Shown here in pieces: positions 4,715 to 36,089 of a stretch of DNA of 64,000 bases. Within the stretch, counting starts at the first letter, position 1. Each line of letters begins with the position of its first letter. A program made the translations under genes and the position numbers. Source of the stretch: a virus. The stretch is from positions 1 through 64,000 of IMG/VR virus record IMGVR_UViG_3300035204_001027; one strand, written 5' to 3'. The notes under the pieces were generated by a model. It was not told the origin of the DNA and did no database searches. It saw nothing but the letters and a program-made list of their open reading frames with translations.

Positions 4715-5847
4715 GAGCTTTAGTTTTAGGTGTTGGAAGAATGGGAACCGCTATTGCGTGGGCAATGGATAAGTTCGGTTTTCACGTAACTGGTATGGAT
4801 ACTAATCCAGAAGCAGCGAACAATATACCATTTAAGGTAAATAATAATCCTGATCCAAAAAACGAATTCTTTATCGTTAAGGACGTAGAAGATATTTTCG
4901 CTGGCATTGTCGCTCAGAAAAAGCCCGATATCATCATTAGTAGCTTGCCCTATCACCAGACCGAGGAGGTAGGGACTTGGTGCGTAGATAATGGATTAAG
5001 GTATTGCGATTTAGGAGGGAGAGTAGACGTTTCTGCGGCTATAAATGAATGGGCAGAAAAATCAACCTACGCAAGAAAACCGGTGTTTACTGATCTAGGC
5101 TTGGCTCCCGGCTGGGTAAATATCCTAGCAGAAGAAGGATATAAGGCTGTTGGGTCAAAGGCTACTAAAGTGGGTATGTACGTCGGCGGATTACCCAAGT
5201 GGGTTGATATGTCGAATCCTCTCAAATATGAATCCACATGGTCTGTCGATGGGCTTATCAATGAGTATGCTGATGATTGTGAGGTTTTGGAAAATGGAGT
5301 TCTCAAAACCGTGAAGGGAATGAGTGGCTTAGAGCATCTTGAGGTTTTCGGTGCCCCATTTGAAGCTTTCTTTACCAGCGGTGGTGCGGCCCACACCATT
5401 AAATCTATGAAAGATAGGGGGGTGCTTGATTGCTATTATAAAACTTTACGGTACAAAGGGCATAGAAACGTTGTGAATTTTTTGATTAATAGATGCGGCT
5501 TAGAGAAGGAGGTTCTAGAAAAGATATTCGTGAAAGGATGCCCCCCTTCAGAGGAGGGGGATATAGTTATAATGAAGGCTAGTGTTTGGAGTGGGGAGAA
5601 CCCGTCTTTGGTTTGGACTAGACAGATACAAATAAATAGTGATGATAATTTTAGCGCAATGCAGAAGGCCACTGCTTTCTCTATCTCCAGTGTTGCTAAA
5701 ATAATGGCAGAAGGAAAAATGGAAGGAGATAAAGATCAACATAGAGATTATTGGACTCAGTATCCAATGTCGCTTTCGTATTCTGATGTACCATACGATG
5801 AGTTTGATAAAAATTTAAATCAATTAGGAGTCTACAGCGATGGATGA
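4711..5847 (+). CDS. saccharopine dehydrogenase / lysine 6-dehydrogenase family oxidoreductase
   Basis: GVGRMG Rossmann motif, YCDLGG, GLAPG, VGGLP, WSVDGLINEY, FTSGG, YKTLRY.GH, SAMQKAT. Confidence 0.88.
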   Translation: MRALVLGVGRMGTAIAWAMDKFGFHVTGMDTNPEAANNIPFKVNNNPDPKNEFFIVKDVEDIFAGIVAQKKPDIIISSLPYHQTEEVGTWCVDNGLRYCDLGGRVDVSAAINEWAEKSTYARKPVFTDLGLAPGWVNILAEEGYKAVGSKATKVGMYVGGLPKWVDMSNPLKYESTWSVDGLINEYADDCEVLENGVLKTVKGMSGLEHLEVFGAPFEAFFTSGGAAHTIKSMKDRGVLDCYYKTLRYKGHRNVVNFLINRCGLEKEVLEKIFVKGCPPSEEGDIVIMKASVWSGENPSLVWTRQIQINSDDNFSAMQKATAFSISSVAKIMAEGKMEGDKDQHRDYWTQYPMSLSYSDVPYDEFDKNLNQLGVYSDG

Positions 5848-33965: not shown

Positions 33966-34039
33966 AGTGGTGTGGCCAAGTGGTAAGGCGTTGCTCTGCA
34001 AAAGCGAGATCGTGGGTTCGACTCCCACCACCACTTCCA
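33966..34039 (+). tRNA. tRNA-Cys(GCA)
   Basis: acceptor AGTGGTG/CACCACT, anticodon arm TTGCT-CTGCAAA-AGCGA, T-arm GTGGG-TTCGACT-CCCAC, U73, encoded CCA. Confidence 0.96.
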
Positions 34040-34439: not shown

Positions 34440-34691
34440 ATGAAGTTACAAGAAGGAAGAGAAAGAGCAAGTAATCTGAAACTGGGCGCAGTCTATTTTC
34501 ATGATAATGAGGCAAAACGGCTAGACCAAATCATAAGCTGTCAAGGTGTGTGGCTTGTTGATGCCGTTGGTGATGGGTATGGTGAAACTATCCCCTTTGA
34601 TGAGGTCGGGTACGCTGACCTTGATGAGGTGCAAGATTTCGTTGATGATTGCGAAGTGGCACTAGGAGAGAAAGCTCCTTTAGATTATTAA
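34440..34691 (+). CDS. acidic hypothetical protein
   Basis: promoter 34404-34432. Confidence 0.7.
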   Translation: MKLQEGRERASNLKLGAVYFHDNEAKRLDQIISCQGVWLVDAVGDGYGETIPFDEVGYADLDEVQDFVDDCEVALGEKAPLDY

Positions 34692-34700
34692 AATTAATCC

Positions 34701-34765
34701 TTGACAAAGTGGTCAAGTTTGTGGTATTATTATATACAGTTGAGCGAGAAATCGTTCTTTGAAAA
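34701..34765 (+). promoter_or_regulatory. promoter plus boxA-like element
   Basis: TTGACA-N18-TATTAT, then GTTCTTTGAAAA at 34754-34765; no ORF follows. Confidence 0.65.
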
Positions 34766-34768
34766 TTT

Positions 34769-34922
34769 AAGGGTGAAATTGGTGTTGCTGGACTGGATAA
34801 CAAGGTTCGAAGGTCAAACAAGGCGACAGCCTGACGCAGGAAAGCCCCTAGTGGAAGCGCGACGAAGCTAGACGGTGATACGATACTGGTCGGGTCAGGT
34901 TCGAATCCTGACACCCTGAACA
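34769..34922 (+). ncRNA. tRNA-like RNA of about 150 nt (tmRNA-like tRNA domain or interrupted tRNA)
   Basis: AGGGTG/CACCCT acceptor-like stem, canonical T-arm TCAGG-TTCGAAT-CCTGA. Confidence 0.6.
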
Positions 34923-34923
34923 A

Positions 34924-35227
34924 TTTAAGCTGACGACGGTTGGCTTAAGGGAATGGCTGAATATCCCTCCAACATAAGGGGAAAGGCATGGGGCCACCTG
35001 AGAGAGTGTTATCGCATGACTCTTGTGGTTTTAGTAGACTGGTTAACTTGAACTGTATTGTGTGCTGGTCTTGATGGTAATGCAGCAATCCATCTTCCCA
35101 TTAATTTATAGGGTGAAGTAACAAACGTCCGCAAAGAGGAAACGGCCCAATAAACAAAGTGCAAGGAGTTGTGGCGTAACGGTGCATCGTGCCACGTAAA
35201 GCACTTAAAAAATTCTCCCTTTTTTTT
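34924..35227 (+). ncRNA. putative structured non-coding RNA
   Basis: serial hairpins, no + strand ORF in track, ends in T-run. Confidence 0.4.
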
Positions 35228-35531
35228 GTCGATCATAAATACCTTTTTTTGATCGGCAATTTTTTTTGTCGATCATTCGTGAGCGGCTAATTCTTTTGCC
35301 AATCAATTATGGCAATTAATGAGCGACAAAGAGGGTAATTGTTTTGCAAGATAATACTGTTTTCGTGGGATATCTCCTCCAATAATTTCGTAAATAGCAC
35401 GAATTTCACATCGGAGAAATACCCCCTTTTTACGAAACTTAAACGTGATACTCATCCGGCGGCCCGGGGCCTGAAAAAAAATGAAAAAACCGCTTGACAA
35501 ACCCTGATTTGTGTGGTATATTATATCCATA

Positions 35532-35960: not shown

Positions 35961-36089
35961 ATGAAACGACGAATCAAAGCACGGGTCAACAGAGATGGCC
36001 TGATGGGCAGCGCGTCTCGTGTCCATCGTGTGAGGAAGGGCAAGGGCTCTTATTGTCGTAAGTCTAAACACAAGAAAAATGAGTGGTAA
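35961..36089 (+). CDS. arfA: ArfA-like alternative ribosome-rescue peptide, 42 aa (not in ORF track)
   Basis: RVHRVRKGKGSYCRKSKH matches ArfA signature KGKGSYxRKxKH; own promoter. Confidence 0.75.
   Translation: MKRRIKARVNRDGLMGSASRVHRVRKGKGSYCRKSKHKKNEW

Follow-up and report, generated by a model that had tools for sequence, protein, structure and literature searches.

The DNA studied here, which we call the window, covers the initial 64 kb of a viral contig of 95.5 kb in IMG/VR, and this contig is estimated to be 50% complete. The contig comes from an uncultured marine phage, and its genes in the window include rIIA, a DNA ligase, a clamp loader, the large terminase and tail fibres. Searches with the large terminase and rIIA gave no close cultured relative. 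Among the related contigs are two genomes of about 158 kb that are nearly complete, one of them with terminal repeats. Between 33 and 40 kb the window is densely packed with short early cassettes, each preceded by a near-identical sigma-70 promoter. The shared promoter pattern has at least 14 matches within 33.0-39.8 kb, against a mean of 0.71 in shuffled sequences. The region also contains a tRNA-Cys(GCA) with an encoded CCA (33966-34039), identified by both ARAGORN and Rfam, and this is the only call that ARAGORN makes in the window. On its 5' side lies an AU-rich stretch that resembles the spacers beside the RNA modules described below, and its 3' side holds a GC-rich palindrome and the next early promoter. 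Another early cassette (35961-36089) holds an ArfA-like gene of 42 codons, which scores 22.2 bits with the Pfam ArfA model, below the cut-off of 25.5.

One early promoter, at 34701-34730 on the plus strand, leads into a non-coding region. It reads TTGACA-18-TATTAT and has 11 of 12 consensus matches, with the -35 hexamer at 34701-06, an 18-nt spacer carrying a TG, the -10 hexamer at 34725-30 and a predicted start near 34737. A first-pass annotation of this DNA had noticed a promoter here that is not followed by an ORF. The promoter is indeed one of the at least 14 near-identical early promoters of the window, and the plus-strand ORF at 34701-34871 was judged not to be coding because relatives differ there by indels and by paired changes of the RNA type. 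Downstream of the predicted start, at 34754-34765 on the plus strand, lies the leader box GTTCTTTGAAAA, which had been likened to boxA of rRNA operons. The box is the sole boxA-like match that the plus strand offers in the whole 64 kb. Compared with the boxA consensus published for gamma-proteobacteria, GYTCTTTAANA, it fits at every specified position save for G instead of A at position 8 (PMC5725501). The same box stands upstream of the RNA described below in 36 of 65 distinct related loci, and in most of these it begins about 35 nt past the first base of the -35 hexamer, where the transcript would start. NusB and NusE may bind this boxA-like leader.

The unit consists, in order, of the promoter, a leader of about 32 nt, a tRNA-like RNA, an AU-rich spacer of 6 nt, a manA RNA, a third motif with a hairpin and a run of eight U. 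The tRNA-like RNA is thus the first module of a non-coding operon whose likely end is the U-run at 35221-28. The manA RNA (RF01745; 34926-35104, plus strand) is recognised by Rfam with 59.7 bits (E = 1.1e-12), the gathering score being 55.2. It lies here outside any 5' UTR; it comes second, straight after the tRNA-like RNA, in an array of non-coding RNAs driven by a promoter. It is also found 3' of the tRNA-like RNA in two other loci (L021 and L022) and not in most of the loci checked. The third structured module (35105-35228, plus strand), with its long hairpin and the U8 run, has no match in Rfam at E up to 1. Its motif of about 50 nt (35108-35160 in the window) recurs upstream of the tRNA-like RNA in L005 and L006.

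The tRNA-like RNA itself is 151 nt long (34769-34919, plus strand) and has a GC content of 53.6%, against 39.7% for the window. Homologues were gathered by exact-pattern scans on its conserved blocks, which gave 8 virome contigs and 93 loci from marine metagenomes, about 100 in total. Removal of duplicates left 66 distinct full-length versions of 120-174 nt, from which we built a covariance model, R1. The window copy scores 136 bits with R1 (E about 1e-32) and is the single match on the 95.5-kb contig. There is exactly one copy per locus and per genome tested with R1, including both genomes of about 158 kb, of which the one with terminal repeats is complete. The exact-pattern scan gave no matches in 185,579 bacterial and archaeal genomes, and this type of search sees only members that retain the invariant blocks. 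When cultured phages and complete genomes of E. coli were searched with blastn, there was either nothing or just chance and T-arm matches. With the window copy and two divergent members, Rfam 15 returned only sub-threshold matches to the T arm, at gathering as well as permissive thresholds, and a scan of 34650-34960 found nothing even at E up to 10, RF00005 included. The first-pass annotation had proposed to run Rfam and ARAGORN on this RNA and to collect homologues for an analysis of covariation. No known family was matched in Rfam 15, ARAGORN at default settings found no tRNA, intron-containing tRNA or tmRNA in any member, and conserved pairing was found among relatives. Our literature search found no description of the RNA, although it could be among the roughly 8,500 unnamed virome motifs of a catalogue from 2023. 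Hence, this is a real RNA family that is in none of the databases searched.

To describe the fold, we aligned 65 sequences with MAFFT without structure information and counted pairs for a hand-drawn structure. Standard pairs occupy 95.9% of the cells, compared with 29-48% when the 3' partners are slid by one to three columns. Compensatory double changes occur in 16 of the 28 pairs, and none of 500 shuffles attains the observed covariation score. These cell counts overstate the number of events, since all members come from one marine phage lineage and many changes are inherited rather than independent. The minimum free energy fold of the single sequence is no better than that of shuffled sequences (z = -0.29), so the structural case rests on the relatives.

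The outermost helix is an acceptor stem of 7 bp, in which 34769-34775 pair with 34912-34918 (plus strand), with compensatory changes in five of the seven pairs. The pairing of AGGGTG (34770-75) with CACCCT (34912-17) had been spotted at first reading; it corresponds to this stem and covaries in relatives. The 3' strand ends with a discriminator A (34919), and ACA follows in place of CCA, which confirms the remark that no CCA is encoded in the window copy. Pair 1-72 is G-C, G·U or a mismatch: it is A·G in the window copy and mismatched in 27 of the 65 sequences. Pair 3-70 is U-A, G-C or C-G in 64 of the 65 and U·G in the remaining one, so the reported lack of the G3·U70 alanine pair holds across the family, that single U·G being the sole type of exception. 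Next to the stem comes a stemless equivalent of the D-loop (34776-34783, plus strand). It had been recognised as such, and its GG at 34781-82 (G13 and G14) is invariant over the 65 sequences. Read by eye, a subfamily (L007, L008, L038, L015 and L057) has a mini D stem of 3 bp. At the other end, the T arm (34895-34911, plus strand) is present as described at first reading, with a stem of 5 bp (34895-99 with 34907-11) and a canonical T-loop of 7 nt; 99.4% of its cells are paired and two of its pairs show compensatory changes. What is conserved, as judged from the aligned relatives, is a cloverleaf with acceptor stem, T arm and D-loop GG, which together would form the elbow of a tRNA.

Between D-loop and T arm there are two arms. 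The first, H1, is a variable hairpin at the position of the anticodon arm (34784-34827, plus strand), whose base pairs 34784-87 with 34824-27; all four pairs covary. It exists in 49 distinct versions of 17-67 nt, all but one of which fold as stem-loops, and no constant 7-nt loop, U33 or anticodon is found among them. The second arm begins with H2, in which 34830-34839 pair with 34886-34894 on the plus strand: 6 bp (34830-35 with 34889-94), a bulged G and 3 bp (34837-39 with 34886-88). In H2, 98.6% of the cells are paired and four pairs show compensatory changes, e.g. from CCUGAC/GUCGGG to CCCUC/GAGGG. There follows an asymmetric internal loop, with 4 nt on the 5' side (GAAA, 34840-34843, plus strand; columns G72 to A75 invariant) and 9 nt on the 3' side (34877-34885, plus strand; invariant save for one Y position). 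The arm is capped by the hairpin H3 (34844-34876, plus strand), which has a variable upper part and a conserved base of 3 bp (34844-46 with 34874-76), whose basal pair 78-106 alternates between C-G and U-A. There are 30 distinct versions of H3, and the majority fold as a hairpin closed by this base. Both H1 and H3 segments are replaced wholesale in sequence while the hairpin fold is mostly kept.

The first-pass annotation had drawn the middle of the RNA as a helix GACTGG/CTGGTC closing about 90 nt of small hairpins, a topology reminiscent of tmRNA. Neither element survives the comparison with relatives. The 5' half of this helix falls in the variable H1 and is absent from most relatives, CTGGTC sits instead in the covarying H2 (34830-39 with 34886-94), and the 90 nt amount to two arms, the variable hairpin at 34784-34827 and a conserved domain at 34830-34894. 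With H1 at the position of the anticodon arm and H2-H3 at that of the variable arm, the layout is the one of class II tRNAs, i.e. a four-arm cloverleaf.

The columns of H2 and the internal loop are invariant, and this apparent invariance is partly built in because the homologue search demanded these blocks; H1, the apex of H3 and the top of the acceptor stem, each with its own sequence types, occur in many combinations among members. In three loci (L087, L031 and L090) the 5' and 3' strands of the acceptor stem belong to different sequence classes and pair incompletely, so that these are either recombinants or chimeras of metagenome assembly. We also considered further elements by eye. A pseudoknot between the D-loop and H1 is sterically implausible and not conserved. 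Palindromic loop motifs, GGA motifs of the CsrA type, Shine-Dalgarno-like complementarity, a T-loop-like pentamer in the internal loop and a hairpin in L005 similar to the HIV-1 DIS (E = 3) were all indistinguishable from chance.

The flanks of the RNA resemble those of a pre-tRNA: U is found at -1 in 47 of 65 sequences, most have A73, and the trailer consensus is N-C-A-A-U-U-U. In one member (L009) an ACCA is encoded, with a U-run behind it. At least six relatives (L008, L041, L007, L017, L043 and L083) have just 6 nt from the end of the -10 box to position 1, which would put the transcription start at the acceptor stem. In these relatives the 5' end would be fixed independently of any processing model. 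Four RNA-seq studies contain short contigs (151-422 nt) with the conserved core of relatives and the manA RNA. This is a weak sign of expression, since assembled contigs could stem from contaminating DNA, and neither ends, strand nor CCA can be read from them; stretches that they leave uncovered carry no information.

Relatives pair the tRNA-like RNA with differing structured modules. Another apparent RNA motif lies in L003 at about 5000-5125 (minus strand) and is found downstream of the tRNA-like RNA also in L004, L007 and L036. Its outer helix varies in a compensatory way between loci (CUCGCC/GGCGAG and CUGACC/GGUCAG), and Rfam does not recognise it at the gathering threshold. A further conserved module lies 10-110 nt upstream of the tRNA-like RNA in L003, L034, L036, L058, L072 and others, between the leader box and the tRNA-like RNA, and ends in a common block of about 20 nt. 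On both flanks of each RNA module there is an AU-rich spacer (C)AAUUUA (65 loci; 34763-68 and 34920-25 in the window) that looks like punctuation and may be a cleavage site of the RNase E type.

How does this RNA compare with those already described? It shares with class II tRNAs (Ser, Leu, bacterial Tyr, Sec; RF00005) the four-arm cloverleaf, the acceptor stem of 7 bp, the T stem of 5 bp, the canonical T-loop, the GG of the D-loop and an extra helix between the arm at the anticodon position and the T arm. The best R1 match in the tRNA cluster of phage T4 is tRNA-Ser, with the two inner arms aligned to its anticodon and variable arms. Yet, the phage RNA lacks an anticodon loop, its D stem is absent or of only 3 bp, its extra arm is about 65 nt long and contains an invariant internal loop, CCA is not encoded in the window copy, and neither RF00005 nor ARAGORN detects it. 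Measured against RF00005, it thus has the acceptor stem and the T arm with its canonical loop and lacks the anticodon arm, i.e. a stem of 5 bp whose 7-nt loop has U33 and an anticodon that stays constant.

As a kind of RNA, the stable RNA species 1 of phage T4 (rnaC, 139 nt) is the nearest precedent. Like the RNA described here, it is encoded by a phage among tRNA-type genes, has about 140 nt and a canonical T arm at its end, and is of unknown function. It differs by lacking the GG D-loop and the conserved arm, and its R1 score of 17 bits is that of ordinary T4 tRNAs; by R1, there is no homology to rnaC or to T4 rnaD. The mascRNA of MALAT1, the tRNA-like RNAs of gammaherpesviruses and the tRNA-like modules of bacterial Y RNAs also use a tRNA-like fold without decoding. 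They are eukaryotic or associated with Ro and have a different topology. The phage RNA gives only sub-threshold matches to them, in the T arm alone, and to our knowledge none of them has a counterpart of the invariant arm. While tRNA-like RNAs are thus already known as a kind, what is new is a class II cloverleaf that combines an inner arm free to vary with a giant extra arm carrying an invariant internal loop.

On balance, we lean with moderate confidence towards the view that this phage gene, present in a single copy, specifies a stable RNA of tRNA shape that does not decode and shows its conserved arm to a partner in trans, the processing outlined here being part of the proposal. The RNA would be transcribed early by the host RNA polymerase. 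Where it heads an operon of several RNAs, the boxA-like leader would recruit Nus factors and shield the untranslated transcript from Rho. RNase P would then remove the 5' leader by a cut between -1 and +1, and on the 3' side cleavage in the AU-rich spacer might be followed by trimming and then by CCA addition. These steps of RNase P, Nus factors and CCA addition are drawn from the general knowledge of bacterial tRNA and rRNA operons. The pattern of conservation suggests that the tRNA body serves stability and that the module formed by H2 and the internal loop is the binder. The body would provide exact ends, maturation and stability, and the invariant arm would be the working part, binding a conserved macromolecule of the host or the phage during takeover. 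This partner most likely belongs to translation or tRNA metabolism.

One might go further and propose a tRNA mimic that carries a CCA tail and uses its invariant arm to capture a core factor of host translation or tRNA surveillance, e.g. a component of ribosome rescue or a defence toxin directed at tRNAs. We put this forward tentatively, as a possibility with a modest chance of being right. If true, the RNA would be an RNA-based weapon of takeover or counter-defence, and this would be the first function assigned to the long-unexplained stable tRNA-like RNAs of phages.

Phage tRNAs can counter defences that target tRNAs. The RNA could be a decoy for tRNA-attacking enzymes of the host's anti-phage defence, for instance nucleotidyltransferase toxins acting on the acceptor end or tRNA nucleases, with its top half and long arm drawing the toxin off the host tRNAs. 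The strong promoter and early expression would suit such a decoy, as would an intact top half of a tRNA without decoding ability and a long extra arm as in class II tRNAs. But the most conserved part of the RNA, the internal loop, has no counterpart in cellular tRNAs, and the loop that anticodon nucleases need is hypervariable, which makes a decoy unlikely.

Synthetases of the Leu and Ser type ignore the anticodon, as the identity rules of LeuRS and SerRS show. One of them might charge the RNA, which would then donate or sequester an amino acid outside decoding. This is compatible with the class II layout and the conserved elbow, and also with the conserved discriminator A, the N-C-A trailer and the one member that encodes ACCA. 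Yet, the acceptor pairs 1-72 to 3-70, which are usual identity sites, vary freely, with 1-72 mismatched as often as stated above, and searches of the contig and of two near-complete relatives found no gene for a CCA-adding enzyme above threshold. We regard aminoacylation as quite unlikely.

The setting in an operon of several RNAs, with AU-rich spacers repeated between modules, raises the question of whether the RNA acts only in cis, as tRNA-like punctuation through which RNase P and RNase E would release neighbours such as the manA RNA. The predicted start at the acceptor stem argues against such a purely cis role: several relatives start the RNA at the predicted +1, and there it is on its own or has a U-run or an ORF after it. 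The manA RNA comes next in only some loci, and punctuation needs no invariant extra arm. A mere processing signal is therefore very unlikely.

It is highly improbable, in our view, that the RNA mimics the tRNA-like domain of tmRNA, binding SmpB or entering stalled ribosomes while the ArfA-like peptide diverts rescue from tagging. The resemblance to this domain (RF00023 and permuted forms) is real, since both join an acceptor stem to a T arm, have a D-loop with GG but no stem, and send a long helix out of the core beside the T arm, and marine phages with full tmRNA genes are documented (PMC9004378). Relatives of the ArfA-like gene are found no more than 6 kb from the tRNA-like RNA in 41 of the about 100 loci, on the same strand in 37 and directly upstream in several. 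The gene is present in four of five related contigs but missing from the complete genome G001, which has the RNA. This linkage may be plain synteny, since both genes lie in the same shuffled early region of one lineage; it may keep a translation-related role on the table without establishing it. Against tmRNA itself, the RNA has an extra hairpin between the D-loop and the long helix, reaches at most half the size of a tmRNA, lacks G3·U70, a conserved tag frame and, in the supported structure, pseudoknots, and scores 8.8 bits with the tmRNA models, compared with a gathering score of 47; ARAGORN and Rfam detect no tmRNA. Its two extra arms fill the place that SmpB takes on tmRNA, and no SmpB gene was found above threshold in the contig or in two near-complete relatives. 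A tag-peptide frame was considered as well, because some members show Ala-Ala-stop. The recurrent UGA is, however, a variable helix position that changes from U·G to C-G; it is absent in 14 of the 65 sequences, and the frames upstream of it are heterogeneous.

Finally, a decayed or intron-containing tRNA gene is scarcely credible, for although the acceptor stem and T arm are tRNA-like, the supposed insert is the best conserved part, ARAGORN run with introns permitted makes no call at default settings and gives inconsistent anticodons when relaxed, and the single-copy gene is kept with compensatory changes over about 100 loci. The original reading therefore stands in part: a novel tRNA mimic with its own promoter and boxA-like leader, which forms a real family with a tRNA-like top half that is missing from Rfam 15 and from the literature searched, is retained, whereas the tmRNA-like topology and the intron-containing tRNA are given up.

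Since the work on T4, phages have been known to carry stable tRNA-like RNAs of unknown function. Here, we describe a large and well-defined family that covaries clearly, has a candidate binding module under sharp conservation and is set in a transcription context that is defined. The family is widespread in ocean viromes and is found in short contigs of marine RNA-seq libraries. Its setting also shows that the manA RNA, catalogued as a cis-regulator, can be one of several non-coding RNAs in an array with its own promoter, and it suggests that a boxA-type leader serves phages to take long untranslated operons past Rho. The tRNA-shaped RNA of these marine phages is a concrete target for RNA pull-downs and structure work.
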